Virus record (IMG/VR): IMGVR_UViG_3300038393_002515
Reading direction: 5' to 3' (one strand)
Length of the DNA stretch: 64,000 nucleotides
DNA from: a virus
Shown here one piece after another: positions 6,476 through 34,324 of the stretch. A model generated the notes under the pieces. The model did no database searches. It had not been told where the DNA came from and worked only from the letters and a program-made list of their open reading frames with translations. Position 1 is the stretch's first letter; every line of letters starts with the position of its first letter. The position numbers and the translations under genes are program-made.

Positions 6476-7456
6476 GTGACCGCCAACACGAACTCTGCCC
6501 CCATCAGCTTCCGCCGTGGTGGTACCGCCGCCGAGCAGGCCGAGAAGGAGGCCAACGTCTCCTCGTCCGGCCGCCGTGGCCCCGACTTCTTCGGCCTCAA
6601 GGACGACGGCGAGTCGACCGTCCTGCGCCTGCTGACCGACCACGACGACTGGATCTGGGTCGACCAGCACTCTTTCGTCCCCACCAAGCCGGGCCCCAAG
6701 GACGCCGAGAAGTGGCCCAAGGCCATGACCTCGGTCTGCCGCTACGACAAGGCCTTCACCGGCCACTACGGCGACTGCTACATCTGCGACGCCAAGCTCA
6801 AGAACTCCTTCGGCAAGCAGGCGACCCCCCGCGTCCGCGTCTGGGCCCTCGCCATCGAGCGAGAGCTGGTGCGCGGCGACGGCAGCGAGGCCCTCGGCGG
6901 CCCGGCCAAGCAGGGCGTCGTCATCGGCGTCCGCGACAAGATCGACGAGGTCGACGAACTCGACGCCAACGGCAAGCCGACCGGCAACAAGCTGAACTAC
7001 CCCCGCATCCTCGTCATCAACATGCCGATGAAGGGGTTCTTCAGCCACCTCAAGGCCCTCCACGGCCTGTACGGCACCGTCTCCGACCGGGACTTCTCCA
7101 TCACCCGCAGCGGCACCGGCACCGAGACCGAGTACAAGATCGTCCCGATCGACCCGATCCCGGACGTCCGACCCGGCACCCCCGCCTGGGAGAAGTACCT
7201 CCAGGCCGTCAACGAGCGCGGCATCTCCCTGGAGGAGATCGTCGGCGACAAGGCCACCGACGAGTACTACGCCCGCTTCTTCGACCCGACCAAGTCGGTC
7301 GAAAAGGACGGCACCGTCACCGCCGCCACGGCCACCACCGGAGGCATGGTGAACCTCCCGGCCGCCGACGCCAGCGGCCCGGCGAACATCTCCGACGACC
7401 TGCGCAGCCGCATCCAGATGCTCGGCACACCGCAGCAGGGCGCCGCAGCCGCCTGA
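6476..7456 (+). CDS. putative ssDNA-binding protein (gp32-like His/Cys3 module)
   Basis: H...C-x13-C-x2-C pattern (QHSF..SVCRYD..GDCYICD). It sits between the primase and polymerase genes. Confidence 0.35.
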   Translation: MTANTNSAPISFRRGGTAAEQAEKEANVSSSGRRGPDFFGLKDDGESTVLRLLTDHDDWIWVDQHSFVPTKPGPKDAEKWPKAMTSVCRYDKAFTGHYGDCYICDAKLKNSFGKQATPRVRVWALAIERELVRGDGSEALGGPAKQGVVIGVRDKIDEVDELDANGKPTGNKLNYPRILVINMPMKGFFSHLKALHGLYGTVSDRDFSITRSGTGTETEYKIVPIDPIPDVRPGTPAWEKYLQAVNERGISLEEIVGDKATDEYYARFFDPTKSVEKDGTVTAATATTGGMVNLPAADASGPANISDDLRSRIQMLGTPQQGAAAA

Positions 7457-7472
7457 CCCAGGCACACAGACA

Positions 7473-7561
7473 CCGGTCCGCCCCGGGTGCCCGTCAGATA
7501 CGGGCCCAGCCCTCCTCACGCCAAAGCTACGGGCTGCGTTGTTCCACCCGGGGCGGACCGG
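7473..7561 (+). promoter_or_regulatory. 89-nt intercistronic three-way structured element
   Basis: Perfect 15-bp outer inverted repeat CCGGTCCGCCCCGGG/CCCGGGGCGGACCGG encloses two hairpins (7489-7505 and 7507-7536). Confidence 0.45.
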
Positions 7562-7598
7562 GCCATCTTCAACACCCTTCAGCGCAAGGACCCACCAC

Positions 7599-10500
7599 GT
7601 GCTGCGCATCATCACCTCCTACGCCCATGAGCGCTTCCCCGGAGCCGAACACCGCGTCGGCAATCTGAAGCTGCACCTGCCCGCCCTTGTCGAGCACGAG
7701 GACGACGGCACTCGCTGGCTGCTCGTCCCCGGCTACATACCCACCGACGTCTCCGTGTCCGTATGGGCCCGCGCTGTCAAAGACGGCGCAGCCGGGATCA
7801 TGCACACCCTGCAGGACGGTGTGGGCGCCGTTCCGGCCCACCGCCTGGAAGAAGACGCCCAGAACCTCGGCAACGGGACTATGCGGCTCTCCTACCGCTA
7901 CAGTGCCCTCTTCTCCGACGCCGACGGCATCCCGACGTACCACGAGGTCCTCGACCAGCTCGAAGCCAAGCAGGACCCGCCGAAGGCGGCCGCCGGGTTC
8001 GTGCACCTGCACACCCACAGCGAGTACAGCCCCCTCGACGGCCTGTCCCGCATGGACGAGATCGTCCGTGAGGTCACCGCCCACGGTCAGACGGCTGTCG
8101 CCATCACCGACCACGGCACCTGCGCCGGGCACCCCGAGCTGCAGCGCGCGGCCGACAAGGCCGGGGTCAAGCCGATCTTCGGTATCGAGGCGTACCTGTG
8201 CGACGACCGCGTCATTCGCGCCGAGCCCGGAGACAAGGAGCTGCAGGCCAAGCTCCGCAACGACTACTGGCACGTCTGCCTGTTCGCCCAGGACAACACC
8301 GGCCTGCGCAACATCTGGGCCGCCAGCACCGAGAGCTTCCGCGACGGCTTCTACCACCGGCCCCGCATGGACTGGGACACCCTCGGCCGGTTCAACGAGG
8401 GCGTCATCGCCTCCACCGGCTGCCTGCGCGGCCCCGTGGCCGTAGCCATCAAGAACGGCGACGCCGACCTGGCCCGCCAGCGCCTGACCCGGCTCATGGA
8501 CCTCTACCCGGGCCGCCTGTACGTCGAGCTGCAGCCCAACGACATGCCCGACCAGGTCAAGCTCAACACGACCCTGGTCGCCCTGGCCCGCGAGTTCCAC
8601 CTGCCGCTGCTGGCCACCGTCGACTCCCACTTCCCGACCGCCGACGACGCCCACGCCCACGACGTCTGGATCGCCTGCCAGACCAACAAGGACGTCCAGG
8701 ACGAAGGCGACCTCTTCGCCGAGGACCTGAACCTCTACGTGATGGGCGAGGACGAGGTCCGCGCCGGACTGGCCTACCTCGGCCAGGACGTCGTCGAGGA
8801 GTCCATCGCCAACACCCGGGCGCTGGCAGACCGCTGCACCGCCCGTATCGAGGGCGAGACCACCACCCCGTCCTTCACCGGCACGCCGAAGCAGGACGAA
8901 GAGCGCCTGTGGCGGCTGATCGAGGACAACTGGGACCGCCTTCCGATCACCGACGAAGCCTCCCGGAAGACCTATATCGATCGCGTCGCCAGAGAGATGT
9001 CTCTCCTTGTCGACAAAGGCTTCTGCGGCTACTACCTGATGGTCGCCGACTACTGCGCCTGGGCGAAGGACAACGGCATCCTCGTCGGCCCCGGGCGTGG
9101 CTCCGGCGGCGGCTCGCTGGTCGCCTACCTCGCCCGCATCACCTCGCTGGACCCGGTCAAGCACGATCTTCTCTTCGAGCGATTCCTGACGCGCGGCCGG
9201 GCGGGCCTCCCGGACTTCGACGTCGACTTCCCCGCCAGCAAGAAGGCCGAGATCCTCGGCTACCTCCGCGAACGCTGGGGTGAGCGCAACGTCGTCTCCA
9301 TCGGTTCCGAGCTGCGCCTGAAGAACAAGGCGGTCATCAACGAGCTGGTCCGCGCGCTGGCCTCCTCCCTGCCCGAGGGCGCCGCCGCCGACCTGCGCCA
9401 GGTCTCCACCCTGATCGACGAGGCCGAGGCGGGCACGGCCGGGCTCGGCATGTCCTGGGAGGACCTCTGGGTCCAGCACGGCGAGCAGCTGCAGCCGTTC
9501 GCCGACCGCTACCCCGAGCTGTTCGCCATGGCCGAGCGCCTGGTCGGCCGCCTGAAGAGCTACGGCCGTCACGCGGCCGGTGTCGTTATCTCCACCGGCG
9601 CCCCGCTCACCGACTGGCTGCCGATGCGCACCATCGACGGCGAAGAGCAGATGGTGACGCAGTGGGCCATGGGCGACGTCGAGGCGATCGGACTGGTCAA
9701 ATTCGACATTTTGACCCTGCGCACCCTGGACACCATCCAGGAGACCCTCGACCTGGTCCGCGCCCAGCGCCGGTACGAGATCGACCTGGAGGCGTGGGAG
9801 GCCGAGTTCGAGGACCCCCTGGTCTGGGAGGAGTTGCAGGCCGCTCACACCCTCGGCGTCTTCCAGATCGAGACCCACAGCGGAACCAGGCTGTGTGAGC
9901 GGATGCGGCCTCAGAACGTCGCTGAGCTGGCCGACATGGTCACCATCGTCCGGCCCGGCCCGATGAACTCCGGCCTGACCGACCTCTATCTGCGCCGCCG
10001 CGCGGGGGAGCAGGCCGTCTCCTACCCCGACCCGCGCCTGGAGCAGGTCCTGGCGCCCACCTACGGCGCGATGATCTACCAGGAGCAGGTCATGGCCGTC
10101 ACCCGCCTGCTGGCCGGGTACGACGAGTCCGAGGCCGACGGCGTCCGCAGGATCTTGGGCAAGAAGAAGGTCTCCGCCATTGCCGACGCCGGGCAGGAGT
10201 TCCTCTCCCGGGTCGACATGCCTCGCGAGCAGGCAGAACGCCTGTGGGCCCAGATGGCTGAGTTCTCGAAGTACGGCTTCAACAAGTCCCACGCCTACGC
10301 GTACGCGTTCCTCGCGTTCTGGACCGCGTTCCTCAAGGTCAACTACCCCCGTGAGTTCCTCGTCGCCGCCATGAGCACCGTCGACAAGGACCGCGTCCCG
10401 GAGTTCGTCAAGGAAGCCCGGCGCCTGGACGTCGAGGTCCTCCCGCCGGACATCAACACCTCCGGCCCCGGCTTCACCGCCGACCCCGAGCGCTACGCCG

Positions 10501-11294
10501 TCCGCTACGGCCTCGGCTCCGTCAAGGGCGTCGGCGACGTCGCCGTCCGTGCCCTCGTCGAGGCCCAGCCGTACGCCTCCTGGGAGGACTTCGAGACCCG
10601 CCGCAGCCCCAAGGCCAACGCGGGCGTCGTCGCCCTCCTCGCCCGCGTCGGCGCCTTCGACACCCTCGCCGCCAACCGGCGCGGCCTGGAGGCCAAGCTG
10701 CTCGCCGCGAAGACCGGCGAGGACGCCCGCTGCGTGCACAAGGACGAGAGCCTCGCCCAGGACAACCTCGGAGCGAACCTCCTGCCCTGCAGCTTCGACT
10801 GGTCCAGCGAGCCCGCGCCGGTCAACCCCCGTACCGGCAAGATCCTCAAGCGCAAGCCGATGCCCAAGCGCTGCACCAAGGCCTGCCGCCAGTACACCGC
10901 GCCGCCGCCCCTGCAGATCGCCACGGTCGAGCCGTACAGCCCGGTGGACATCCGGCAGATCGAGCACGAGATGCTCGGCACCTACCTCAGCTCCACGCCG
11001 TTCGACGACCTCGACCCCAACGACCGCGCCGTCTGCCGGGCCCAGGCTGAGCAGCTGGCGAGCGGACCGAACGGCACCTACTACGTCGCCGCGATCGTGG
11101 CAGGAGCCCGCCCGCACAAGACGGGCGACATGGGCTTTCTGACCCTGGAGACCGAAACCTCCACCCTCCGCGTCGCGGTGTTCCGTGACGCCTGGGCCGT
11201 CGAGCAGCGCCGCTTCGTCAAGGGCGCCCTCTGTCTGGCCGAACTCCGCAAGAACGACCGGGGCCTGAGCCTCGTCGCCTACCAGCCCCTGTGA
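7599..11294 (+). CDS. dnaE: DNA polymerase III alpha subunit (DnaE-type, PHP domain)
   Basis: FVHLHTHSEYSPLDG PHP motif, GPGRGSGGGSLVAY, PDFDVDF and KFDILTLRTLD. GTG 7599 after AAGGA is preferred over ATG 7539. Confidence 0.9.
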   Translation: MLRIITSYAHERFPGAEHRVGNLKLHLPALVEHEDDGTRWLLVPGYIPTDVSVSVWARAVKDGAAGIMHTLQDGVGAVPAHRLEEDAQNLGNGTMRLSYRYSALFSDADGIPTYHEVLDQLEAKQDPPKAAAGFVHLHTHSEYSPLDGLSRMDEIVREVTAHGQTAVAITDHGTCAGHPELQRAADKAGVKPIFGIEAYLCDDRVIRAEPGDKELQAKLRNDYWHVCLFAQDNTGLRNIWAASTESFRDGFYHRPRMDWDTLGRFNEGVIASTGCLRGPVAVAIKNGDADLARQRLTRLMDLYPGRLYVELQPNDMPDQVKLNTTLVALAREFHLPLLATVDSHFPTADDAHAHDVWIACQTNKDVQDEGDLFAEDLNLYVMGEDEVRAGLAYLGQDVVEESIANTRALADRCTARIEGETTTPSFTGTPKQDEERLWRLIEDNWDRLPITDEASRKTYIDRVAREMSLLVDKGFCGYYLMVADYCAWAKDNGILVGPGRGSGGGSLVAYLARITSLDPVKHDLLFERFLTRGRAGLPDFDVDFPASKKAEILGYLRERWGERNVVSIGSELRLKNKAVINELVRALASSLPEGAAADLRQVSTLIDEAEAGTAGLGMSWEDLWVQHGEQLQPFADRYPELFAMAERLVGRLKSYGRHAAGVVISTGAPLTDWLPMRTIDGEEQMVTQWAMGDVEAIGLVKFDILTLRTLDTIQETLDLVRAQRRYEIDLEAWEAEFEDPLVWEELQAAHTLGVFQIETHSGTRLCERMRPQNVAELADMVTIVRPGPMNSGLTDLYLRRRAGEQAVSYPDPRLEQVLAPTYGAMIYQEQVMAVTRLLAGYDESEADGVRRILGKKKVSAIADAGQEFLSRVDMPREQAERLWAQMAEFSKYGFNKSHAYAYAFLAFWTAFLKVNYPREFLVAAMSTVDKDRVPEFVKEARRLDVEVLPPDINTSGPGFTADPERYAVRYGLGSVKGVGDVAVRALVEAQPYASWEDFETRRSPKANAGVVALLARVGAFDTLAANRRGLEAKLLAAKTGEDARCVHKDESLAQDNLGANLLPCSFDWSSEPAPVNPRTGKILKRKPMPKRCTKACRQYTAPPPLQIATVEPYSPVDIRQIEHEMLGTYLSSTPFDDLDPNDRAVCRAQAEQLASGPNGTYYVAAIVAGARPHKTGDMGFLTLETETSTLRVAVFRDAWAVEQRRFVKGALCLAELRKNDRGLSLVAYQPL

Positions 11295-11944: not shown

Positions 11945-12022
11945 GCTGCGAAATCAAGCCAACCGCCATTGGCCACAGCTGACCGCCATCAGCTGCTCCT
12001 ACCGCCAAGGAGACCCCGCACC

Positions 12023-13150
12023 ATGCCTCCCAAGAGCCGTCTCGCCAAGCTGCGCGCGGACCTGACCAAGGTCTACGGCGACCGCGTCACCCGGCGCGAC
12101 ACGATGGTCCGGCCCACCTTCATATCCAGCGGCAGCCTCACCCTCGACTACGCCCTCGGCGGCGGCTTCGCCCTGAAGCGCACCCACGAGATCGTCGGCC
12201 CCGAGGGCATGGGCAAGACGACACAGTGCATCCTCGCCATGGTCGACGCCCAGCGGATGTTCCCCGACCGGGGCGTGGCGATCATCGACATGGAGCAGTC
12301 CTTCGACTTCGAGTGGGCCGCGAAACTCGGCCTGGACCTCGACGAAGACCGCTTCGTCCACATCTACCCGGACCACTCCGAGGACGTCTCCGACCAGATC
12401 AGCATCTTCCTCCGAGACGGGGATATCTCTCTCGTCGTCGTCGACTCCGTCGGCGGCATGGAGTCTAAGGCCGCCTTCGAGAAAAAGGCCGAGGACTCCG
12501 CCATGGGCAAGAACTCCCAGGTCATCTCCCGCATGGTCAAGCGCGTCGCGGGCCTGTGCCGTGCGAACAACGCGGCCGTGATCTTCGTGAACCAGTACCG
12601 GGCCGACATCGGCAACCCGCGCGGTGGACAGAAGTCCGCCGGACCGAGCGCCCTGAAGTACAACACCACCACCAAGATCAAGATGAGCCGCACCGGCGAG
12701 CCGACGAAGAAGGTGTCCATCACCGACGCCGTCTCCAAGGCCCCCGCTGAACTGGAAGTTGCCCGCCAGATCCGAGCCAAGGTCGAGCGCAACAAGCTCG
12801 CCCCGCAGGGACGCGTCGCTGACTTCTGGTTCCGCAACGTCGCCACCGACAAGTACGGCCCCGTCGGCATCGACCGCGCCGACGAAGCCATCACCCTCGG
12901 CATCGCCACCGGCGCCATCAAGCGCCTGTCCACCGTGTCGTACGAGTTCCCCGACGGCAGCACCGTCAAGGGCGGCCGTCCTGGCGTCGAGGCCGCCATC
13001 GCCGAGCGACCCGAGCTGGTTGAGCAAGTCCGGGAGAAGGCCCTGGCCGCCATCTCCAGCGACGTCAAGGCCGACCACACCGTCTCCTACGACGACGTCC
13101 CCGACGGAGTCGACCCCACCACCGGCGAGATCCTGGAGGACGCCGCATGA
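12023..13150 (+). CDS. recA: RecA-like recombinase
   Basis: SGSLTLDYALGGG, Walker A GPEGMGKT, Walker B LVVVDSV and VIFVNQ. AAGGAG SD precedes ATG 12023. Confidence 0.85.
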   Translation: MPPKSRLAKLRADLTKVYGDRVTRRDTMVRPTFISSGSLTLDYALGGGFALKRTHEIVGPEGMGKTTQCILAMVDAQRMFPDRGVAIIDMEQSFDFEWAAKLGLDLDEDRFVHIYPDHSEDVSDQISIFLRDGDISLVVVDSVGGMESKAAFEKKAEDSAMGKNSQVISRMVKRVAGLCRANNAAVIFVNQYRADIGNPRGGQKSAGPSALKYNTTTKIKMSRTGEPTKKVSITDAVSKAPAELEVARQIRAKVERNKLAPQGRVADFWFRNVATDKYGPVGIDRADEAITLGIATGAIKRLSTVSYEFPDGSTVKGGRPGVEAAIAERPELVEQVREKALAAISSDVKADHTVSYDDVPDGVDPTTGEILEDAA

Positions 13151-14011: not shown

Positions 14012-14431
14012 ATGAATCCCCCGCACTTTGACCTCGCCAACTCCTGGAACTACATCCTCGCCAGCCTGGACGTCGTCGGCCTCGTCGCCCTGCGCGCCGT
14101 CGGCAAGAAGAACGCCAAGGGCTGGCTGTGGGCGATGTTCACTCAGGCCGTCTGGATGGTCTACTCCGTCTCCACCTTCCAGTGGGGCTTCCTCACCGTC
14201 GCCGCCGTCAAGTTCGGCGTCTACACCTGGAACTGGACCTCCTGGGTGCGCGGTGACAAGGCCGAGGCCAAGCCCAAGACGCGCGAGGAGCTGGCCCTGG
14301 AGCTGGCCCGCGATCGACTGCCGAAGGGCACGGACGAACTCACGGTGCTGCGAGCCGCCTCCATGCTGACCAAGGCACTCAAGGTAGTGGAGCTGTACCC
14401 GGAGAAGATGAAGGCAGGGCCGACCACGTGA
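14012..14431 (+). CDS. membrane protein
   Basis: Three predicted TM helices in the N-terminal 80 aa. Confidence 0.55.
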   Translation: MNPPHFDLANSWNYILASLDVVGLVALRAVGKKNAKGWLWAMFTQAVWMVYSVSTFQWGFLTVAAVKFGVYTWNWTSWVRGDKAEAKPKTREELALELARDRLPKGTDELTVLRAASMLTKALKVVELYPEKMKAGPTT

Positions 14432-15267
14432 CCTTCACCCCGTCCTTCCGCCGGGTCGGCGCCATGAACAACAACCTGGCGCTGATCCCGCTGATCGAGA
14501 ACGCCGTCCAGCAGTGCGCCTTCCCCAAGGACTTCACCGTGCGCCTGCACTCGTACTCCGCCAAGCGCGAGCCGGACGGCTGGTTCCACCCCTCGACCCA
14601 CCCGACCATGGACGAGCGGAAGCTGTACTACTACCTCGCCCAGCCGGACAAGTGGGACGAACCCGAGTGGGACTATGGCCCCCGCATGTCCGTCCTGGTC
14701 GGCACGATCATGCACGAGGTCATCCAGACCGTCATGATCAAGATGGGCCTGCTCGTACCGCCGAAGGGCACCTGCGTGTGCTGCGGCAAGCCGCACGGCA
14801 AGGGCAAGGGCAAGTGCGATGAGTGGGGCGTACGCGATGACCTCCTCGGCCGACGCGGCCACATGGACGGCCTCCTCGACCTCCCCGGCTGGTGCGCGCC
14901 CGGCGACGGCATCTTCGACCTGAAGACGTCAGCGCCCGCCGCCCTCCGAGGCATCGAGAGCCATGACCTGGACGCCTTCAAGCTCAAGTGGCCCTACTAC
15001 TACGGCCAGGCCCAGGAGTACATGGCCCTCACCGGCAAGCTCAAGGCCCTGATCCTCTTCATGGCCATGAGCGAGGGATGGGTGATGAAGGAGTTCACCA
15101 TCCCTCGCGACGACCTGTACATCGCCCGCCTGGAAGCGAAGTACCGCACCGTCCGCCGCCACGTCGAGATGGGCACCCCGCCGCCCGTCGCCTGCTGCCC
15201 CGGCGGCGCCAAGGCCCGCAAGTGCCCCGCCACCCGCTGCACCGTCAAGATCGGACTCGCCGCATGA
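14428..15267 (+). CDS. Cas4/RecB-family exonuclease
   Basis: GTIMHE, GHMDGLLD, IFDLKTS and QAQEYM motifs plus a C-terminal Cys cluster (CCPGGAKARKCPATRC). Confidence 0.7.
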   Translation: MTFTPSFRRVGAMNNNLALIPLIENAVQQCAFPKDFTVRLHSYSAKREPDGWFHPSTHPTMDERKLYYYLAQPDKWDEPEWDYGPRMSVLVGTIMHEVIQTVMIKMGLLVPPKGTCVCCGKPHGKGKGKCDEWGVRDDLLGRRGHMDGLLDLPGWCAPGDGIFDLKTSAPAALRGIESHDLDAFKLKWPYYYGQAQEYMALTGKLKALILFMAMSEGWVMKEFTIPRDDLYIARLEAKYRTVRRHVEMGTPPPVACCPGGAKARKCPATRCTVKIGLAA

Positions 15268-22329: not shown

Positions 22330-22643
22330 CTCGGGCTCCTCAACTCGCGTTCCTGCAAGGAGGGTTGGCCAACCCGGTGAGACCACAGTAGGCCAGCAAA
22401 GTCCCAGTTCAAAGCTTCGTCGTGGCGGCTCAGGAGAGGCTTGGGAAGCCCGATTCGGCCTTCCGGCGGCCCAGACGGCGCCGGAAGGGGTGCCGGGTGC
22501 TGCCGGGGAGTGCGTCCGGGGGTCGCGGAGGGTGTGCGAAGGCCAAAAACGCCACCCGCACTTCATTTATAACGGTCAGGTAACGGTTGTCTGCTGCTGT
22601 GCAAAGCCGCTCCGGCGCCCGAAGGGGCGAGGAGGGCACCGCC

Positions 22644-24839
22644 ATGAGCAGCAAGTTCGAGGACACATCCCCGCTGGCCAGCTTCGACCCGCTGGCCATC
22701 CACCAGCTGTACCTGGGGCTGGAGGTCCCCGACCCGATCACGTTCGTGGTCTCGCCGAAGTACCTGAACCGGCCGAACCTCTACCCCCGCCAGGCCACCC
22801 TCCTGAAGGTGTTCTTCCTGCGTGAGGACCTGTTCACCGCGTACGACTACAGGGTCGTCGCCGAGTGGGACGAGGCCTACCGCACCGCCAAGAGCGCCAA
22901 CGAGCAGCGCGCCGCCCGCGCCGCCGCGCTCGCCGAAACCCCCGAGGACGCGCTGGCGGCCGAGATCGACGGCATCATGACCGACGCCCTCGACGAGATC
23001 GCCGCGCAGGCCCTGCTGGAGGGCAACGAGGACGCCCCCAAGATGCCACTGTCCGGCAGCCCGGACCTCCTCGGCCGGATGCGCGCCTGCAAGGCCCTCG
23101 GCTACCGGTGGTTCAAGGAGATCCTCCTGGTGATGGGCCGCCGTGCAGGCAAGGGCCACATCTCCGCTATCGCCATGGCCTACGTCCTGTGGTGCTACAT
23201 GGCCAAGGGAGACCCCCAGGAGTTCTACGGCGTCGACCGCGACAAGAAGCTCGCCGTCCTGATCTTCGCGGGCAAGCGTGACCAGGCCAAGCAGAACCTG
23301 TGGCGCGACCTCGTCAACGTCGTCACCGGCGGCCCCTGCTTCGCCCCCTACATCGCCGACAGCCTCGGCGAGAAGCTGAGCGTCTACGCCCCCAACGACT
23401 TCATCCGCATGGACGAGATGCGCAAACGCGGCATCAAGACCGCTATGGACATGGCCACCTTCCACATCCTGCCGAAGGAGTCCACCGTCATGGCAGGCCG
23501 TGGCCCGGCCTCCATGATCCTCGGCTTCGACGAGATGGCCCACGTCGTCAACAGCGGCGCCAACCGCTCCGCCGGAGAGGTCTACGACGCCTCCACCCCC
23601 TCCCTCGACCAGTTCGGCAAGGACGGCTTCATCGTCGAACCCTCCAGCCCCTGGGAGATGAGCGGCAAGTTCTACGAGAACTGGCTGCGCGCCACCGAGT
23701 ACGAGCCCGACGGCACCCCCGTCTACCCGTCCGTCATGATGATCCAGCTGCCCAGCTGGGACGTCTACCTCGACTGGCAGATCGCCCACGAACTCCCCCT
23801 CTTCCCCGAAGGCTTCACCGGCGACAACGGGGAGTACACCGACTGTGAGCTGCCGAACTTCCAGCCGCTCAAGGGCGCCATCCAGAACTACGACGAAGAG
23901 ATGCGCAAGCTGGAGAAGGCCGACCCCGACACCTTCGCCGTCGAGCGCCGCGCCCAGTGGGCCACCGTCCTGGACGCCTACCTCAACCCAGACAAGGTCG
24001 AGGCCGTCTTCGGCCCCTGGCACGAGCGCCCCGAACGCTACGGCGGCAAGCTGATCCTGCCCACCACCCAGGGCATCCTCGCCTACACCTACAAGGGCCA
24101 CGCCGACCCAAGCTCGGTCAACTGCCGCTTCGGCGTTGCCATCGCCCACACCGAGACCGACGACGAGGGCCGCCCGCACGTCGTCTTCGACAAGATCCAC
24201 TACTTCGACCCGGCCGACTTCCCGGGCCACACCATCGACTACGAAGAGGTCGAGGACTGGATCTGGGACGACATGATCGTCCCCTACATGCCCGAGGACT
24301 TCACCTTCGACCAGTACCAGAGCGTCGGCTCCATCCAAAAACTGGTCAAGAGAGTCGCCCGCACCCGCATGCCGAAACCGGTCAACATCTGGGAGCGCAC
24401 CGCCACCAACCAGATCAACTGGAAGTACGCAGAGACCTTCAAAGCCGCGATCAACATGGGCCTCGTCCACGCACCCGAGCACGACGAAGGCATGCTGGAA
24501 CTGAAGTTCCTCCAGAAGCCGCCCGGCATCAACCGTGTCGATCACCCCACCGTCGGCCCCGTCCAGACCAAGGACATCGCCGATGCGATCATGATCACAA
24601 CGTACGCCCTGATCGGCGACTGGATCGAGGGCTACAAGGAGATGCTCAACGCCGCCCAGCCCACCGGCGCCATGCAAGGAGGCCTCCACGGCTCCAGCGC
24701 CCGCACACCCGACATGGCCGCCCCCGACTACGACATGCAGGCCCGCCTGGACGCCCTGCGCTCCTTCACACGGACCCGTACAGGACGCCACGGCTGGGAG
24801 CAAGGGCTGGGCCGCACAAGGTCCGGATATCGCCGTTGA
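22644..24839 (+). CDS. terL: terminase large subunit
   Basis: Walker A GRRAGKGH, LIFAGKRDQA and Walker B ILGFDEMAHV, followed by a C-terminal nuclease-like region. Confidence 0.8.
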   Translation: MSSKFEDTSPLASFDPLAIHQLYLGLEVPDPITFVVSPKYLNRPNLYPRQATLLKVFFLREDLFTAYDYRVVAEWDEAYRTAKSANEQRAARAAALAETPEDALAAEIDGIMTDALDEIAAQALLEGNEDAPKMPLSGSPDLLGRMRACKALGYRWFKEILLVMGRRAGKGHISAIAMAYVLWCYMAKGDPQEFYGVDRDKKLAVLIFAGKRDQAKQNLWRDLVNVVTGGPCFAPYIADSLGEKLSVYAPNDFIRMDEMRKRGIKTAMDMATFHILPKESTVMAGRGPASMILGFDEMAHVVNSGANRSAGEVYDASTPSLDQFGKDGFIVEPSSPWEMSGKFYENWLRATEYEPDGTPVYPSVMMIQLPSWDVYLDWQIAHELPLFPEGFTGDNGEYTDCELPNFQPLKGAIQNYDEEMRKLEKADPDTFAVERRAQWATVLDAYLNPDKVEAVFGPWHERPERYGGKLILPTTQGILAYTYKGHADPSSVNCRFGVAIAHTETDDEGRPHVVFDKIHYFDPADFPGHTIDYEEVEDWIWDDMIVPYMPEDFTFDQYQSVGSIQKLVKRVARTRMPKPVNIWERTATNQINWKYAETFKAAINMGLVHAPEHDEGMLELKFLQKPPGINRVDHPTVGPVQTKDIADAIMITTYALIGDWIEGYKEMLNAAQPTGAMQGGLHGSSARTPDMAAPDYDMQARLDALRSFTRTRTGRHGWEQGLGRTRSGYRR

Positions 24840-25080: not shown

Positions 25081-25137
25081 CCCTTTCCACCCTGTCCTCC
25101 ACTCCTTCACCGACGTGAAGGGCTGGAGGTGCAGGGG

Positions 25138-28100
25138 ATGACGGACATCAGCGCGGCCAGCTTCTTCCGCCAGGCGGCGGCCGATGGCGGGATCGACTTC
25201 GACCACGAAGAGACCGACACCGGCAGCTCGATCTGGCCCACCCGGATCAAGCTCAAGGCCCTGCACCCCGAGACCGGCGAGGAGATGGGCTTCCTCGACT
25301 ACCAGGTGCCCCGCCGCAAGGCCGACAAGATCACCGTCCATGAGCTGAAGACTCACGAGGACTACCGGCGCCAGGGCGTCGGCTCCGCCCTCATGGACGA
25401 GATGCAGCGCCGCCATCCCTCCACCCCCATCGATCACGGCGACCGCACCCCCGCCGGTAAGGCCTGGTGGAAGGGGTACACCGACGGCAAGCGAGTCCAG
25501 CGCGGCCGCACCATGGCCTCCCTCATCGACGCCTCCCACCCCCGCGCCGAGGTCCCGCCCGAGCAGGCAGAGGCCCTCGAACACCCCTCCTTCAGCGAGT
25601 ACCGGCGCCGCTCCCTGGAGCTGGCCAAGAACCCCACCCCCGGCACAGTCGTCTGGCGCGGCGAGACCCGCACCGGCGAGCCACACGACGCCCTGCGCTC
25701 CTCCGGCGTCGGTATGCACTGGACCGTCAACCCCGACTCCGTCCTCGTCCCGCGCCCGCAGCACGAAACCGAGCGCCGCGTCCTGTGGCAGGGACGCATC
25801 GAGAACCCCACCGAGCAGACCATCCCGCGCTCCCACCCCAGCTGGGGCGGCCGCACCGGCCACTCCATGGACCACGAGGCCGAGGTCCGCTTCCAGCCCG
25901 GCAGCAAGGTCCACATCGAGGGCGCCTACGTCTGGCACGGCCAGGGCGACCCCCAGGGCCAGCCCGTCCCCCGCAGGCCCGAGCGAACCCACCCCGGCTG
26001 GAAGTGGCACCCCGTCGGCGAGCACGCCGAGGTCCGCAACCTCGGCCACATCGACTACGGCCAGCACGAGACCCCGGCCAGCGACGCCAAGATGCCGCCC
26101 CTGTGGCACGGTGCCGACCCCCACACCGTGCTGCAGCACGAGCACGACGCGGGCAACCATCACTCCAGCCACCCCGGCGGCACCTACGACGACATCGACT
26201 GGGACGCCCCCGACGAGCACGTGGACGGCCACAGCGCCGCCGTCATGACCGACATGGCCCTCAAGGACGGCTACATCAAGCCCCACGAGCTCAGCCACGA
26301 GGACGCCTCCGAATGGCTGCGCTGGCACCCCGACCGCGCGGGTATCGAACAGCGCCACAGCGGCAAGACGGCCATGCGCCGCACCGCAGCCCTGCAGGAC
26401 GGCGACGACATCCCCTCCGGCCTCCTCAACCCCCACGGCCACCGTGTGAAGGTCAAGGTCGGCGGCCAACGCAACGTCGAGCTGGTGCCCCGCCACGAGG
26501 TCGAGCGCTACGCCAGCCAGGAGACCACCAAGGAGCACACCAAGGAGGTCGGCGAGCGCATCATCCACACCGGCGAGATGGAACCGCTCATCCTGCAGTA
26601 CCACCCCAAGAGCGGAGAGGCCTATCTGGGCGAGGGAAACCACCGCCTGCGCGCCGCCCGCACCCTGCAGATGGACCACGTCCCCGTCCGCGTCACCCGC
26701 AACAACTACGGCCTGGCCGGGCCCGGCGTGAAGGTGCCCCAGGACCATCCCGCCATCGCCGCTGGTGAGCACGTCCCCTACGACATCAAGCCCTCCGACA
26801 TCGGCCTGACCACGGTCCACAAGCCCACCATGTCTGAGGCCGACAAGCACACCGAGCTGCTCAACTACCGCCTCCTCCACGGCGGCAAGACGGCGGCCTA
26901 CACCCACGACCCACTGCCCGAGCAGGTCCGTTCCTGGAAGAACACCCGCTGGGATGTTCCCCACGAGGTCACCAGTTACATCCACCGTGGCCTGACCCTC
27001 CCCCTGACGCCCGAGGACCACGCCTACGTCCACGACGACTCCATCCCCGCTGGACGGCGCGCGGCCCACATCGTCGGCCTCGTCCACGCCCAGGGCGGCC
27101 TCGGACGGCACTGGACGGCCGACCCGGACATCGCAGGTCACTTCTCCCATTCCGGCGTCGGAGAACTGAAGCACCACCCCCACCTGCTCTCCGTCACCCT
27201 GCACGCGCACCCGCCCGCGCCCGAGCACATCGAGCACGATCCCGTCGAACTCGGCCGCATGGGAGTGCAGGGCCAGTCCGTCGAGAGCGAAGTCCCCCTC
27301 AAGGCCAGCTCTCCCGTGCGCCTGTTCGGCGTGTCCTGGCGCAACAGCCGCGACTTCGAGCAGCGCGGCCACTACCGGGCAGCCCCAGGAGCCAAGGGCA
27401 TCACCCGCAACGCATCGTCCGAGAAGCCCTGTCCCTGCTGCGGCGGCACCGGCGAGCACAGCACCGGCTTCGAGTGCTACCACTGCGACGGCGGCCTCAC
27501 AGTCCCTGTCAACAGTTCGGGTGATGCCACTTGCGACGGCACCTTGCCTGACGGCGGCCACAAGAGGATGGCGCGCGAGCTTGGTGTCTACGGGCCCCCT
27601 GACCGCTGGTATCACGCTTCACGGGAGAACCTGGATGAAGACGGATTTGAGGAGGGACACGTCAAGCCGGGCCATGACGAGGAATACGGCAAGCACTGGA
27701 ACAGCCACCTCGGCATCCACCTGACCTCGCACCACCCGACGGCGGTGGAACTCGCCGAGGGGATGTACGGCACCGTTCACCACGTCAGTCTGAACTCCAG
27801 CAACCCGCGCCACTACCCCTCCGAGCACGACCTGACCCACGACGTTCACTCGTGGGCCAGCAAGCACCCGGACTTTCGGCGCGACATGCCTGCCCCTGAC
27901 CACTCTCTGCCCGCCACTGAGGCGGCCGAGACGATGCTGCGCCACCACCCTCGCATCGCCGAACTCGCCCAGGGATTCCGTCAGCATCTGCGCAACCAGG
28001 GCCACGACGCCATCACCTATGGCAACGAGTACGAGGGGCCGCACGGTCATCTGTGCGCTATCGCTCTGAGCCCGCACGACGCACGGATAGACGGGGCTCA

Positions 28101-29016
28101 CAGCTGGGACGACGACGAGGAATGCGGGCACCTTGATGCGCTCCCCCCTCGCCACGCCTCCGTCGACACCCCCGTCCCTGACAACACCCGGCCGTACGAG
28201 CATCCCCACGACTGGCTCCCCCGCGATCACTTCTTCGCGCCGGGGGAGAAGGGCCTGGATCCGCGCCTGTTCGATGGCGACCGCATGCACCCCGAGGTCC
28301 GCCAGTACCTGCTGTCGCTGCTCAACGGCTTCTGGGCGCCCCGCTACGGCGACTCCTGGCAGTCCTGGGCCCGCGTCTACCTCGCCGGGTCCGAGGCCAG
28401 CCACTTCTACGGCAACGGCGACCTCGACATCCTGATCGGCATCAACTACGAGGCGCTCAACCAGCACTGCGACGCCTTCTGTGGCGAGCCCTGGAACGAG
28501 ATCGGTGACCGTCTCACCGCCGAGCTCAAGGCGAACCTCAACGACGACCTCCGCATGCTGCCCGGACCGGACGGCAAGGAGACCGGCCCCTGGGAGAACA
28601 CCTGGTTCGTCCTGAGGGACCCCTCTGGCACCGGCGACATCCGCAACATCAAGCCGTACGCCGCCTACGACATCACCGCCGACACCTGGGCCGTCCGCCC
28701 TGTCGAGGTGCCCGACGACTTCGGACCCGAAAAGCTGCCCGAGGCGAACTGGGATGTGGTGGACGCGGTGCGCGCCTTGGTGAAGGCTATTGGGGAACTT
28801 CCCCCCGGCACTCGCGAACGGGAAGGTGCAGCGTTGTACGATTACCTCCACTCCGACAGGTCCGCCGCCTTCGGAGATGAAGGGACCGGCCTCTACGACA
28901 CCGCCAATGTCCGCTGGAAGGCCCTCTCCGCAGCACCAGACGCACCCCTGCAGCAGCTCGTCGACTGGAAGCACGCCCACGGAACCGCCGCCACGGACCG
29001 GGAGACCGCCGCATGA
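25138..29016 (+). CDS. polyvalent multi-domain effector protein 1 (GNAT, two R-S-E ART-like, ParB-like, Zn finger, ART-PolyVal-like, nucleotidyltransferase)
   Basis: RRQGVGSAL; VVWRG..HWTVNP..EAEVRF; YIHRG..HWTADP..VESEV; GEGNHRLRAA; CPCCGGTG; WYHAS..HLTS..YGNEYEG; AGS-x10-DLD. Confidence 0.75.
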   Translation: MTDISAASFFRQAAADGGIDFDHEETDTGSSIWPTRIKLKALHPETGEEMGFLDYQVPRRKADKITVHELKTHEDYRRQGVGSALMDEMQRRHPSTPIDHGDRTPAGKAWWKGYTDGKRVQRGRTMASLIDASHPRAEVPPEQAEALEHPSFSEYRRRSLELAKNPTPGTVVWRGETRTGEPHDALRSSGVGMHWTVNPDSVLVPRPQHETERRVLWQGRIENPTEQTIPRSHPSWGGRTGHSMDHEAEVRFQPGSKVHIEGAYVWHGQGDPQGQPVPRRPERTHPGWKWHPVGEHAEVRNLGHIDYGQHETPASDAKMPPLWHGADPHTVLQHEHDAGNHHSSHPGGTYDDIDWDAPDEHVDGHSAAVMTDMALKDGYIKPHELSHEDASEWLRWHPDRAGIEQRHSGKTAMRRTAALQDGDDIPSGLLNPHGHRVKVKVGGQRNVELVPRHEVERYASQETTKEHTKEVGERIIHTGEMEPLILQYHPKSGEAYLGEGNHRLRAARTLQMDHVPVRVTRNNYGLAGPGVKVPQDHPAIAAGEHVPYDIKPSDIGLTTVHKPTMSEADKHTELLNYRLLHGGKTAAYTHDPLPEQVRSWKNTRWDVPHEVTSYIHRGLTLPLTPEDHAYVHDDSIPAGRRAAHIVGLVHAQGGLGRHWTADPDIAGHFSHSGVGELKHHPHLLSVTLHAHPPAPEHIEHDPVELGRMGVQGQSVESEVPLKASSPVRLFGVSWRNSRDFEQRGHYRAAPGAKGITRNASSEKPCPCCGGTGEHSTGFECYHCDGGLTVPVNSSGDATCDGTLPDGGHKRMARELGVYGPPDRWYHASRENLDEDGFEEGHVKPGHDEEYGKHWNSHLGIHLTSHHPTAVELAEGMYGTVHHVSLNSSNPRHYPSEHDLTHDVHSWASKHPDFRRDMPAPDHSLPATEAAETMLRHHPRIAELAQGFRQHLRNQGHDAITYGNEYEGPHGHLCAIALSPHDARIDGAHSWDDDEECGHLDALPPRHASVDTPVPDNTRPYEHPHDWLPRDHFFAPGEKGLDPRLFDGDRMHPEVRQYLLSLLNGFWAPRYGDSWQSWARVYLAGSEASHFYGNGDLDILIGINYEALNQHCDAFCGEPWNEIGDRLTAELKANLNDDLRMLPGPDGKETGPWENTWFVLRDPSGTGDIRNIKPYAAYDITADTWAVRPVEVPDDFGPEKLPEANWDVVDAVRALVKAIGELPPGTREREGAALYDYLHSDRSAAFGDEGTGLYDTANVRWKALSAAPDAPLQQLVDWKHAHGTAATDRETAA

Positions 29017-31760
29017 CCGAGCACAGCGCCACCGAGTTCTTCCGCACGGCCGCAGGCATCCCCGAGGGCGCGCCCAAGGGCCTCGCGACCAGCGAGCAGA
29101 CCTGGGGCCACTACCGGGCCGAGCACGCCGCCTTCAAGGACACGGACCAGCGGCAGTACCCGAGCACCAAGGCGGCCCAGCAGCACGCCGACGAGATCTG
29201 CGACAAGGAGGGCCTGCCGCGCGTCAAGGTGCGCGCGCACCGCTCACCGAACCCGAACTACTCGCGCTACGACTCGCAGCTCTACGTGAAGCCCGAGCGC
29301 CAGTACATGCCGGTGGTCTCCCTCGGGAAGTCCTCCTACAACGAGGGCGTGCTGATCCACGAGCTGGCGCACCACAAGCACTTCACGACGACGTTCCCCG
29401 ACGGCAAGGTGGACCCCGAGGGGCGGGAGAAGTACTTCGCCGACGACGAGGGCGGCCACGGCGCAGGCTTTCAGCAGCACTACCACCAGATGATCTCCGA
29501 CCACCACAGCGGCGGCAGCGACTTCGCCGACTCCGTACGAAGCCACGCCGCAGAGGGCGGCTTCTGGAAGGCGTCCGCACTGCAGGCCGAGCCCACGGGG
29601 GAGGAGGGGCCACTGAACGAGTCACTCGTCTGCCTCTCACCCACCGCCAGCCGCGAGACGAGCGAACCACACACCGCGACCGCGTTCTTCCGTGGCGCGT
29701 ACGATGCCCCCGAAGGAGGAGGCCATGGATCTGGACGAGCAGACCGACGAGATGATGTCTCCCGAGGTCGAGGCGGAGATCCTGCACCGGCAGGAGACCG
29801 CCGACGACCGCAGCCCGGTCAGCATGAACGAGCTGAAGCGGCGCCTCGCCGAGTCCACGCTTCAGCCGAGGTAGAACGCCACCCCGAGCTGCAGGGCGAC
29901 CTGGACCGCCTCGGCGGTGGCGCCCGGCACGTGCAGGACACCATCACCGCTCTGCAGCACGGGCACTCCAGCGTGAGCACCTACCCGCTCTCACACCCGC
30001 TGGAGGGCTGGCACGCCGCCATCACCTCCGGCGGCCACCAGGTCGTCCACCGCGTCGACCCCGACACCAAGACCCTTCACGTCGGCTACGCCGGACACAA
30101 CATCGCTGATGCCGAGGAACGCCTGGGTGCCAGTGGGGGAGAGGGCAGCTCCCTGCCGGTGGAGTTCCACAAGGGCGCGGAGAAGGACTTCGACAGCCTC
30201 CACCCCGAGGTCCAGGAGAAGGCTCTCAACACCATCGACCGCCTCGCGCGCGGCGAGCAGCACAAGTTCGACCACGCCCTGACAGGTAAGCACTGGGAGA
30301 CCGGCGGCTGGCGATCGGCCCGCGCCGACTTCCTGCACCGCGTCACCCACCGCTTCGAGGACAACGAGGGCAACCCCGTCTCGGCGCCCGAGCGCGCGGC
30401 CCGGCTGTTCATCGGCCACATCGGCCCCCACAACTACGAGGCCGCCCAGAAGCGCCTGTCCAGCCTGACGGCGTGGTTCCGGACAGCCAGCCTGCCGCAG
30501 GAGTGGTACCACGGCTCCGGTGCCGCCTTCGACCGCTTCGACATGAGCAAGAACAAGACGGTCCAGGACGATGACGACGCCAAGCACTGGAACAGCCACC
30601 TCGGCGCCCACTTCACCAGCGACCACCGCGTCGCCCAGGAGTTCGCGCAGCGCCAGGGCGGCGGCCACGTCTACCACGCCCGGCTCGACCTGCAGAACCC
30701 CAAGCACTACGAGTCCGAGCACGACCTGGACCGGGAAGCTGCTCACTGGGCCCATGCCAACGGGCACGACCTTGGGCCGACGATGAGCAACCCGGCCTAC
30801 CGGGAGCAGACCGAGCCGGACGAGTGGCAGTTCCTCATCAAGTACAACGACGAGGGTCACCCCAGGCCGGAGGCCCGCGAGATAGCCCACGGCTTCCGCA
30901 AGCACCTGCAGGCCCAGGGGCACGACGGCATTACCTACGGCAATGAGTTCGAGGGCGCCCACAACGGCTTCCACGCTGGAGAGCGGCACCTGTCCGCCAT
31001 CGCCTTCCACCCCGACCAGATCCAGATCACCCAGCGGCACGGCGGCGCCGAGGACCACGAGCCCCGCACTGCTGCTACCAGAGGCGTCGACAACGAGGGT
31101 CACCCCGTTGAACTCGACGACATCGACGGCTGGCACCATGCCGACGGATCCGTCTCTCATGACGATGGCACCACCATCTCTGACCACCCGGTCCGCGTGA
31201 CCGAGGCCGAAGAGCGGCTCATGCAGCGGCAGGCGGCCGCCGTGACGTACGACGACGGCATCATGGTGGCTTTCGTGCCGCCGCCCGAGATAGCCGCCCA
31301 ACTCGCCCAGGACGGCGGGCAGACGGCCGATGATCTGCACATCACCCTGGCCTACCTGGGCCATGTGGCTGACTACACTCCCGAGCAGCTTTCACTGCTG
31401 CCACAGCTGGTTTCAGCCTGGGCAATGCGCCAAAAGCCGGTTACGATCCGCATCGGAGGCGTTGGGACGTTCAACAACGCCTACAAGAACCAGCACGTCC
31501 TGTGGGCGCACCCCGACATCCCGGGTGGAGTTCAGATGCACGTCAGCCTGGTCCGCGAGCTGGAGCGCTACAAGTTCCGGCTCCCCAGCGAGCACGGCTG
31601 GACACCCCACATGACGCTGCAGTACGTCAACCAGCACCACCGCTTCATGCCGCAGCTGCCACAGATCGGCTGGGAAGCGACCGAGGTGGTCACCTTCATC
31701 GGAACGGCCCGCCACGCCGCTCGCCTCGGCTCCCGTCCCAGCACAACCACCACGCTCTAG
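29013..31760 (+). CDS. polyvalent multi-domain effector protein 2 (HExxH peptidase, two RelE/ParE-like, ART-PolyVal-like, 2H phosphoesterase)
   Basis: 915 codons are open in one frame. Motifs: HELAH; two RelE-like folds; WYHGS..HFTS..YGNEFEG; HITL and HMTL. Codons 29712-29876 look off-frame, so the gene structure is uncertain. Confidence 0.6.
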   Translation: MTEHSATEFFRTAAGIPEGAPKGLATSEQTWGHYRAEHAAFKDTDQRQYPSTKAAQQHADEICDKEGLPRVKVRAHRSPNPNYSRYDSQLYVKPERQYMPVVSLGKSSYNEGVLIHELAHHKHFTTTFPDGKVDPEGREKYFADDEGGHGAGFQQHYHQMISDHHSGGSDFADSVRSHAAEGGFWKASALQAEPTGEEGPLNESLVCLSPTASRETSEPHTATAFFRGAYDAPEGGGHGSGRADRRDDVSRGRGGDPAPAGDRRRPQPGQHERAEAAPRRVHASAEVERHPELQGDLDRLGGGARHVQDTITALQHGHSSVSTYPLSHPLEGWHAAITSGGHQVVHRVDPDTKTLHVGYAGHNIADAEERLGASGGEGSSLPVEFHKGAEKDFDSLHPEVQEKALNTIDRLARGEQHKFDHALTGKHWETGGWRSARADFLHRVTHRFEDNEGNPVSAPERAARLFIGHIGPHNYEAAQKRLSSLTAWFRTASLPQEWYHGSGAAFDRFDMSKNKTVQDDDDAKHWNSHLGAHFTSDHRVAQEFAQRQGGGHVYHARLDLQNPKHYESEHDLDREAAHWAHANGHDLGPTMSNPAYREQTEPDEWQFLIKYNDEGHPRPEAREIAHGFRKHLQAQGHDGITYGNEFEGAHNGFHAGERHLSAIAFHPDQIQITQRHGGAEDHEPRTAATRGVDNEGHPVELDDIDGWHHADGSVSHDDGTTISDHPVRVTEAEERLMQRQAAAVTYDDGIMVAFVPPPEIAAQLAQDGGQTADDLHITLAYLGHVADYTPEQLSLLPQLVSAWAMRQKPVTIRIGGVGTFNNAYKNQHVLWAHPDIPGGVQMHVSLVRELERYKFRLPSEHGWTPHMTLQYVNQHHRFMPQLPQIGWEATEVVTFIGTARHAARLGSRPSTTTTL
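29725..29874 (+). CDS. embedded +1-frame ORF, antitoxin-like (49 aa)
   Basis: GAAGGAGGAGG SD precedes the ATG. Only 3 of 49 codons end in A/T, against 36 of 55 in the host frame. The SPEVEAEILHRQE...SMNELKRRL tail resembles addiction-module antitoxin components. Confidence 0.5.
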   Translation: MDLDEQTDEMMSPEVEAEILHRQETADDRSPVSMNELKRRLAESTLQPR

Positions 31761-33331: not shown

Positions 33332-34324
33332 ATGTCTGCCCCCCAGAGTACCGTCACCAACGCCGTGGTGTCCCACAGCACCACCACCTGGAAGACCAGA
33401 GCCACCCAGGCCGACTGGGACAAGATCATCACGGACGGGATGATCTACCTCCTCGCCGTCGGCGGCTTCTACCTCGGCTACCAGACCCTCTACGACCTCG
33501 CCACCACCGTCGGCTACACCCCCCACCAGGCCTTCGTCGCCGCCGCCCTCGCCGACATCGCGATCCTCGCCTACTCCCGCAAGGCCGTCGCCGAGATCAA
33601 GGCAGGCCGCTCCGCCTGGGGCATCCGCCTCATCGTCGCCGCCTTCTCCCTGGCCACCTTCGGCCTCCAGCTGCGCGCCGCCTGGCCCCACCCCACCGCC
33701 GTCGGCTTCCACGGCATGGCCCCCGCCGTCTGGATCCTCGGCCACGAGATGATGCTCCGAGGCCGCCTGCGCACCGCCAAGGCCGCCCGCCGCGCCGCCC
33801 AGGTCGCCGCCGGACTGCGCCCCGCCCCCCTCCCGGCCATCCGCCTGTCGTGGTGGCTGCTGGACCCGTACCACACCTTCATCATCTGGCGCCTGGTGAA
33901 GCTCTGGGAGAAGCCCCAGGACGAGGTCATCCGTAACGAGGCCGCCAAGCGCAAGGACAAGGGCAAGAACGTCCCCCGCGCCTGGGAGGGCTACCTGCTC
34001 ACCGCCGAGACTCCCGCCGCCGAGGAGACGGCGGAGGAGCCGGAGCAGGAAGAGGAGACCGCGCCGGAGACCGGCCTGTACCGACTGTCCGACCCCACCG
34101 AGAAGGTACCGACCGAGGACTTCGACGCCTTCCTGCTCAACCTCCCCGTCGCCCCGGTCAAGGGCCGCCCCGAAGACAAGGCCATCGAGTACATCCGCGA
34201 AGTCGACAAGCTGGCCGCCAAGGCCGACATCGCCGTCACCGACAGGTTCATCGCCGGACTGCTCGGCGTCCACGCCAGCCGCGTCTGCCGCCTGCGCAAG
34301 GTGATGGCTCCGGCCAACCCCTGA
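33332..34324 (+). CDS. DUF2637-like membrane protein with C-terminal HTH-like segment
   Basis: Four N-terminal TM helices, an acidic linker and IAGLLGVHASRVCRLRK. Confidence 0.45.
   Translation: MSAPQSTVTNAVVSHSTTTWKTRATQADWDKIITDGMIYLLAVGGFYLGYQTLYDLATTVGYTPHQAFVAAALADIAILAYSRKAVAEIKAGRSAWGIRLIVAAFSLATFGLQLRAAWPHPTAVGFHGMAPAVWILGHEMMLRGRLRTAKAARRAAQVAAGLRPAPLPAIRLSWWLLDPYHTFIIWRLVKLWEKPQDEVIRNEAAKRKDKGKNVPRAWEGYLLTAETPAAEETAEEPEQEEETAPETGLYRLSDPTEKVPTEDFDAFLLNLPVAPVKGRPEDKAIEYIREVDKLAAKADIAVTDRFIAGLLGVHASRVCRLRKVMAPANP

Follow-up and report, generated by a model that had tools for sequence, protein, structure and literature searches.

How does a gene that is open from end to end come to be written, for part of its length, in the codon style of another frame? 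The question is raised by a gene for a protein of 915 amino acids (aa) in IMG/VR virus record IMGVR_UViG_3300038393_002515, a stretch of 64,000 nucleotides (nt) that we refer to as the window. By the definition of Iyer et al. 2017 it encodes a polyvalent effector, several unrelated effector domains sharing one polypeptide. A first-pass annotation had noticed that, just upstream of two RelE-like domains, the coding signal of this gene moves into the +1 frame, and had offered three explanations: a genuinely overprinted antitoxin-like open reading frame (ORF), a toxin-antitoxin (TA) cassette captured into a polyprotein, or a pair of compensating frameshifts or programmed recoding. We found that the 150 bases at 29725-29874 are dual-coding, specifying a linker in the frame of the 915-aa gene (the long frame) and a small gene in the +1 frame. 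The first explanation is the one best supported, by the conservation of the ORF and by selection on its core, and the second describes its likely origin. Our favoured reading, which we hold with moderate confidence, is that the small gene is truly nested and independently translated, and that its product would serve as an antitoxin or immunity peptide for a polyvalent toxin delivered by virions or by transfer.

The window has a G+C content of 69%, and its real genes have a G+C content at third codon positions (GC3) of about 0.92. Between 29712 and 29876 the long frame has A or T at the end of 36 of its 55 codons and the +1 ORF at the end of three of its 49, counts that exactly reproduce those reported earlier. 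GC3 across 29700-29880 drops to 0.35-0.42 in the long frame and climbs to 0.95-0.97 in the +1 frame. Codons of the long frame have a median usage of 7.9 per thousand here, compared with 35.2 for those of the +1 frame and 40.7 for those of the flanking domain. Scanned in 10,889 windows of fifty codons, the 26 genes show no other internal stretch whose GC3 is below 0.6. The Shine-Dalgarno (SD) site at 29712-29722, the ATG at 29725 and the TAG at 29872-29874 are all present in the sequence as first described, and the G+C content at codon positions 1, 2 and 3 of the nested ORF is 0.69, 0.37 and 0.94. The coding sequence (35.9 kb) has 108 GGAGG sites, and the one described here is alone in preceding an out-of-frame start of a nested ORF of at least 45 codons.

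The linker that the overlap specifies in the long frame is predicted to be disordered: AlphaFold2 gives long-frame residues 221-283 a predicted local distance difference test score (pLDDT) of 31-35 and zero secondary structure. Peptide segments can be assigned to their frames, QETADDRSPVSMNELK coming from the nested frame and GGDPAPAGDR from the long-frame linker. It had been pointed out that the toxin domains have no start codon of their own; the long frame indeed contains no ATG, GTG or TTG from the nested ATG to the toxin domain, which excludes an independent toxin start. Because no other start codon serves them, read-through of the long frame is the sole route to the RelE-like, ADP-ribosyltransferase (ART) and 2H domains. 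The coincidence of the nested stop with the beginning of RelE-like domain 1 (d1) is seen both in the alignment and in the d1 model.

Because relatives were sought with the long protein, the sample does not favour loci with an intact small ORF; it comprises a finished plasmid, three Streptomyces genomes and nine IMG/VR contigs, and further relatives of the cassette came from ENA and Logan metagenome contigs. The comparison with orthologous loci that had been recommended shows the nested +1 ORF recurring in 14 distinct relatives from independent assemblies. Its SD, start, peptide core and stop are kept in all of these, across two cassette types, and the long frame is open in every one. A G-rich, SD-like stretch stands before the start at each of the 13 loci tabulated: it is mostly GGAGG, with GGAGA in L016 and L014. 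L023 has AGAAGGAGG ahead of a GTG start. The nested start codon lies 5-9 nt downstream of the SD in every relative. The conserved core of the peptide covers 26 codons (sPEVEAEIL.R..T..DR..VS.NEL), the GTAG junction is found in 13 of the 14 distinct relatives (the exception, L014, is a low-quality contig with a displaced stop), and the insertions and deletions that separate the relatives are all multiples of three. In relatives with the window's type of cassette (type A), the TAG overlaps the GTA right before ERHPELQGD and the long frame has neither a start nor a stop codon across the overlap.

The second cassette type (type B) was found in L002 and L004, which lack the window's cassette and carry a different RelE-like domain (VSFHPAA...). 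Their nested +1 ORF, MTTEAPEPQDEGNHGVSPELTRELQERAKTPTEQHVPWEQLKVELGL, has diverged to about 30% identity with the window peptide and shares its SD, ATG and GTAG; the pattern is seen again in L016 and in L023, the latter with its GTG start. The long frame of the type B loci does contain a GTG, 110-122 nt from the beginning of the overlap, that arises from the conserved Trp codon of the peptide. The type B domain gives sub-threshold matches to ParE_toxin (E = 0.021) and RelE_StbE (E = 0.005), with YafQ and HigB also among the best, and a fragment of it is labelled RelE/ParE toxin by NCBI. Several relatives lack the zincin-like module at the N-terminus of the window's gene, and in these the nested ATG comes as early as about 20 codons into the long ORF (MTEFNAVAHFRGAYDAPEGG...). 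A profile of the peptide retrieved 16 small ORFs of the family that were already annotated elsewhere, two of them as NCBI 'hypothetical proteins'; the contexts examined share the architecture described here, and gene callers had shortened the long gene. The practical consequence for annotation is that the small ORF is missed, as in pRLB1-9.1, or is called at the price of a shortened long gene that loses d1, as in L015 and L016.

The way in which the overlap has evolved distinguishes its two frames. G+C contents of about 0.7, 0.4 and 0.95 at the nested codon positions, a pattern normal for the genes of this genome, are found in nine type A sequences, three of type B and one outlying sequence, and are kept through 30-50% nucleotide divergence. 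In the 26-codon core the minimum numbers of substitutions at nested positions 1, 2 and 3 (17, 11 and 25) are distributed like those of the coding flank (108, 83 and 153; P = 0.86); assigned to long-frame positions, the core counts depart from those of the flank (P = 0.0045). The ratio of nonsynonymous to synonymous differences (pN/pS) in the core comes to 0.59 when the nested frame is used and to 1.45 when the long frame is, against 0.65 for the flank by the same crude method. Our reading of these figures is that +1 is the coding frame of the core, that the peptide tails change quickly and that the long-frame sequence is essentially unconstrained save near the start of the domain. Judged by the aligned sequences, both frames carry marks of translation or selection, as expected of overlapping genes.

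The domains that follow the overlap had been called RelE-like on first reading. Predicted structure upholds this label (pLDDT 91 for d1, with Foldseek template-modelling (TM) scores of about 0.7), and curated sequence thresholds, which the domains fail, do not. All 50 PDB matches listed by Foldseek for the d1 model are RelE, YafQ, YoeB, ParE or HigB toxins, the best having TM scores of 0.70-0.73. RelE-like domain 2 (d2) was modelled with a pLDDT of 71-88 and a beta-alpha-alpha-beta3-alpha topology, and its RelE-family fold matches reach target TM scores of up to 0.80. When residues 221-494 are modelled together, both domains adopt the RelE topology and nearly all the Foldseek matches listed belong to these same toxin families. 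The models, built from shallow alignments, thus place d1 and d2 in a shared RelE/YafQ/YoeB fold of the BECR-fold superfamily. Aligned with one another, d1, d2 and the type B domain have invariant GW, H.V.HR and G..G.H motifs, and conserved His, Arg and Tyr positions occur in the RelE-like domains (H.V.HR, G.HNY). Near the C-terminal helix d1 reads H-N-I (30105-30113), where d2 (30438-30446) and the type B domain read H-N-Y; by its sequence d1 might be a catalytically altered copy. A sequence-profile search of the PDB gave no match to d1 or d2. A word-indexed protein search with the RelE tandem found nothing, the same search as a profile found one partial family member only, a metagenome scan with the RelE-like domain profile found nothing, and no further copies of the peptide or of the RelE-like domain occur within the window. 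A sub-threshold Rfam match to the ASdes small RNA on the minus strand of the d1 coding sequence (30003-30070; 22 bits against a gathering threshold of 40, E = 0.017) is probably due to chance.

What could a small peptide be doing in front of a RelE-fold domain? Its sole relative outside the family is P0018, a protein of 86 aa to which the resemblance is weak (E = 0.024 database-wide); hhalign gives a probability of 95% over 27 columns around TPEVEAEILRRAATPTD. The P0018 gene lies directly upstream of, and overlaps, a gene for a 91-aa YafQ_toxin protein (34.9 bits against a cut-off of 30), which gives P0018 the place of the antitoxin in a RelE-superfamily pair. The segment of P0018 that matches the peptide comes after its weakly ribbon-helix-helix (RHH)-like N-terminus; comparison of the toxin-domain profile with the YafQ-like neighbour was not significant. 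In the window the nested gene is co-oriented with d1 and its stop overlaps the first d1 codon. Wherever the nested ORF was found, in either cassette type and in several domain contexts, a RelE-fold domain follows it. Because of the weak link to P0018, the nested position and this exclusive association, 'antitoxin-like' seems the best label for the peptide. A likeness to PF09720 or to the C-terminus of E. coli RelB is backed by no search and is not claimed.

These observations suggest a mechanism for the protection of the producer cell. Ribosomes recruited by the strong SD would initiate within the gene and produce a peptide of about 49 aa, which would bind d1, d2 or both in the nascent polyvalent protein and so keep the producer safe. 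The 915-aa gene is located in the terminase and head-gene region of the element, and its product may travel with the DNA into a new cell, where loss or decay of the peptide would free the toxin. The nested peptide is probably derived from a captured cassette of the RelBE type. In this scheme an antitoxin-toxin cassette with a four-base stop/start overlap would have been captured into the polyvalent gene, the start codon of the toxin and the stop of the upstream module would have disappeared, and the two would have fused; the linker would then have come from reading on through the antitoxin gene in the -1 frame. We put forward a wider proposal, whose prospects we consider evenly balanced, that a family of Streptomyces phage-plasmids carries the antidote wholly inside, and out of frame with, the reading frame of a delivered RelE-type toxin, that the linker arose de novo and the nested gene is the older of the two, and that the arrangement has been kept in at least two cassette types.

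Several observations weigh against our favoured reading of the nested gene. The peptide has no family match in Pfam, NCBIfam or the PDB, where its matches are at chance level only, and a HMMER scan of 1.84 billion representative proteins returned just its own small family and repetitive proteins. At 38-60 aa it has no DNA-binding domain, matching neither RHH, helix-turn-helix (HTH), Phd nor AbrB, and certain variants are basic rather than acidic. Relatives with separate, unfused antitoxin and toxin genes were not found among the sequences recovered. On the toxin side, d1 and d2 lie below curated thresholds, with no match in Pfam or NCBIfam, d1 is without the Tyr of the H-N-Y motif, and the toxic activity of the RelE-like domains is putative. 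That the +1 ORF is open is not significant by itself (stop-avoidance test, P ~0.45). Over the whole nested ORF pN/pS is 0.84, a weakly informative value because GC-biased third positions saturate (the bona fide flank itself gives 0.65), and substitutions are flat across the codon positions (40, 37 and 42); in the C-terminal tail (12 alignment columns) it is the long frame that appears more constrained. Both the translation of the peptide and its neutralisation of a toxin are steps that we infer.

Some of the same observations would be expected if a TA cassette had been captured and only the long-frame read-through were still functional, the +1 ORF being a decaying relic. The whole-ORF pN/pS and flat substitution counts fit such a relic, as do an openness compatible with chance under a GC-biased mutation spectrum and a peptide of no recognised family. 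We nevertheless consider it unlikely. The SD, the start, the stop position and the 0.7/0.4/0.95 pattern persist in 14 sequences whose peptides are about 30% identical across the cassette types, and a fossil frame would have lost that pattern; the core changes in the manner of a coding sequence when read in the +1 frame but not when read in the long one; and, were the +1 frame neutral, the third positions of the long frame (G+C 0.35-0.47) should drift to the genome-typical 0.9.

The nested ORF might instead be translated to regulatory ends, tuning or pausing translation of the linker, or its product might be a packaging or assembly factor. Translation of mok tunes that of hok in a comparable way. 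A strong internal SD and 36 rare long-frame codons would be expected to affect elongation, and a regulatory role would be at ease with poorly conserved peptide tails and weak antitoxin homology. It accounts less well for an amino-acid core that is conserved and is shared with the gene in the antitoxin position beside a YafQ toxin, and the restriction of the nested ORF to sites before RelE-fold domains ties it to the domain and not to translation of the gene in general. Such a role strikes us as improbable, to about the same degree as a decaying relic.

Programmed recoding, the third of the explanations first offered, would produce an in-frame antitoxin domain, either by a +1 shift into the nested frame and a -1 shift back at GTAG or by a start at 29725 followed by a shift at the stop. 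The strict conservation of GTAG and an internal SD before the shift site, reminiscent of prfB, could be read in its favour, and in-frame antitoxin-toxin fusions exist (PMC11980606). We find it very unlikely all the same: the arrangement recurs in independent sequences and has its own SD; neither junction has a conserved slippery sequence (the bases before the TAG vary among GAGG, GGCG, GAAG, GCAG, GCTG and CCTG); the nested start codon, superfluous for recoding, is retained in every relative; GTAG is accounted for by double coding, in which it serves both the Val-Glu in the first strand of the domain and a stop; and the Rfam scan found no recoding element, its sub-threshold match being probably a chance one. 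Paired compensating sequencing or assembly indels, for which the frame switch itself and nothing beyond it speaks, are scarcely credible and are refuted by the same two-frame layout in the finished plasmid, in three isolate genomes and in IMG/VR, ENA and Logan contigs.

The remaining features of the 915-aa gene and its surroundings are set out in Table 1. The gene upstream, which looks to encode another polyvalent protein (1295 aa), ends in a TGA that is overlapped by the ATG of the 915-aa gene (ATGA), and the long ORF of the short-form relatives is likewise ATGA-coupled to the gene upstream. The N-terminal module has no Pfam match and looks zincin-like by its HExxH motif alone; it is missing from the short-form relatives L006, L008, L015 and L016, in which the gene's N-terminal motif is joined straight to the junction point that precedes the cassette. 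The junction motif TATAFFRGAYD recurs at the N-terminus (residues 5-15) and at residues 484-494, and in the more general form (S/T)A(T/S)xFF(R/Q/K)xA it marks the N-terminus of each of the two polyvalent genes as well as borders between domains within them. Presence or absence of the zincin-like module is bounded exactly by two of these motifs, which, to go by their sequence and placement, could be sites of proteolytic processing or recombination joints for module shuffling. The ART-PolyVal and 2H/LigT domains both score above their Pfam cut-offs. The 1295-aa ORF is placed between the terminase-like gene and the 915-aa gene; its C-terminal region is well conserved and common to all relatives, and a portal function, for which there is no family match, may reside in this protein.

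Domain searches identified terminase-like (TerL-like), DnaE, RecA and DUF2637 genes in the window. Known phages gave no DNA-similarity match to the window; the nearest relative of the element is the 154-kb circular plasmid pRLB1-9.1, and related contigs are classed as viral by IMG/VR. Because of this plasmid relative, the TerL-like, DnaE and RecA genes and the viral contigs, the element is best described as a Streptomyces phage-plasmid.

Table 1. Features of the nested locus, the 915-aa gene and their surroundings. Positions are those of the window unless a relative is named.
Feature	Position	Strand	Remarks
SD site GAAGGAGGAGG of nested ORF	29712..29722	+	within long-frame codons E-G-G-G
Nested +1 ORF, MDLDEQTDEMMSPEVEAEILHRQETADDRSPVSMNELKRRLAESTLQPR	29725..29874	+	49 codons plus TAG; proposed antitoxin/immunity peptide
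Long-frame linker, EGGGHGSGRADRRDD...HASAEVE	29712..29876	+	same DNA; Arg/Gly/Asp/Pro-rich; rare codons
GTAG junction	29871..29874	+	GTA (Val287, first d1 residue, 0.7 per thousand) overlapping nested TAG
Polyvalent gene, 915 aa (long frame)	29013..31760	+	open throughout; full-length homologue on pRLB1-9.1
HELAHH motif of N-terminal module, residues 116-121	29358..29375	+	H116, E117, H120 and H121 invariant
Junction motif TATAFFRGAYD, residues 221-231	29673..29705	+	precedes cassette
RelE-like domain 1 (d1), residues 287-374	29871..30134	+	AlphaFold2 pLDDT 91.4, predicted TM score (pTM) 0.83
RelE-like domain 2 (d2), residues 379-485	30147..30467	+	homologous to d1 and type B domain
ART-PolyVal ADP-ribosyltransferase domain, residues 495-671	30495..31025	+	PF18760, 40.8 bits against cut-off of 31.2
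2H phosphoesterase/LigT-like domain, residues ~763-878	31299..31646	+	PF13563, 50.9 bits; PF02834, 32.4 bits
(S/T)A(T/S)xFF(R/Q/K)xA motif	25138-25180, 29025-29057, 29673-29705, 30462-30494		also in long ORFs of L002, L003, L004 and L011
Type B nested cassette	L002 7103-7246; L004 7037-7183; L016 4001-4153; L014 654-839		L014 degraded
Discordant annotation	L015 4001-4252; L016 4001-4153; L001 6001-8487		
1295-aa ORF	25129-29016		another polyvalent protein by appearance; weak GNAT and ParB_N matches
Terminase-like gene	22587-24836		upstream of 1295-aa ORF
DnaE-type polymerase	7353-11294		
RecA	11945-13150		
Cas4/RecB-like exonuclease	14257-15267		
DUF2637 protein	33332-34324		

If the nested gene does encode an antitoxin, it shows how a mobile element can shield its producer cell from a toxin domain that is buried in a polyvalent effector, and it represents a new layout for a toxin and its antidote, in which the antidote is nested, out of frame and upstream of the toxin domain. 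Toxin and antidote would be inseparable by recombination, and single-base changes can silence either frame while leaving the other intact. It would also be a case of overprinting in which the nested gene is the older one and the enclosing frame the novelty: a coding frame born by read-through of an existing gene, and one that can be dated by comparing relatives.

The closest functional parallels are the RelBE, DinJ-YafQ and YefM-YoeB operons, in which a small gene with a strong SD of its own lies directly upstream of a RelE-fold toxin gene and overlaps it by four bases. The two frames are offset exactly as in an NTGA-type overlap within a RelBE-type cassette, and the size and position of the peptide resemble those of the C-terminal toxin-binding segment of RelBE-type antitoxins. 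It differs from these operons in that the toxin is a startless domain of a 915-aa protein with the antitoxin ORF wholly inside it and out of frame, and from type II antitoxins in that the peptide has no DNA-binding (RHH, HTH or Phd) domain. In-frame antitoxin-toxin fusion genes of the RelE/ParE superfamily, which make one polypeptide (Gerdes 2025, PMC11980606), also confine a TA cassette to one gene and place BECR-fold domains in multidomain proteins; here, in contrast, two separate polypeptides would come from overlapping frames.

As an effector, the 915-aa protein resembles the polyvalent proteins known from phages and conjugative elements (Iyer et al. 2017, PMC5512222), having several effectors in one protein, among them ART-PolyVal, 2H and BECR/RelE-fold RNase-like domains and an HExxH module. 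Like the genes of polyvalent proteins and of MuF polymorphic toxins (Jamet et al. 2017, PMC5576092), its gene sits beside the terminase and head genes of a mobile element, and delivery with the DNA is presumed here. The passages of PMC5512222 on antitoxin, RelE or immunity contain no nested antidote and do not address self-protection of the producer. In MuF-type polymorphic-toxin genes the immunity ORFs lie immediately downstream (PMC5576092), whereas the candidate antidote described here is upstream of the toxin domain, inside the gene and in another frame.

Full-text literature searches for antitoxin or immunity genes that are nested in, overlap or overprint another gene did not find an antidote lying out of frame inside a toxin gene. 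By analogy, the closest structural counterpart may be Rz1 of phage lambda, which is nested in the +1 frame of Rz: there too a short gene is wholly embedded, and the two products form one functional unit. Unlike Rz1, the embedded gene here appears to be the older of the pair and the enclosing frame the new one, and the products would be a toxin and its antidote instead of two lysis subunits. As we read it, the arrangement draws on three familiar kinds of system, namely the type II TA pair, the polyvalent effector and the nested gene.

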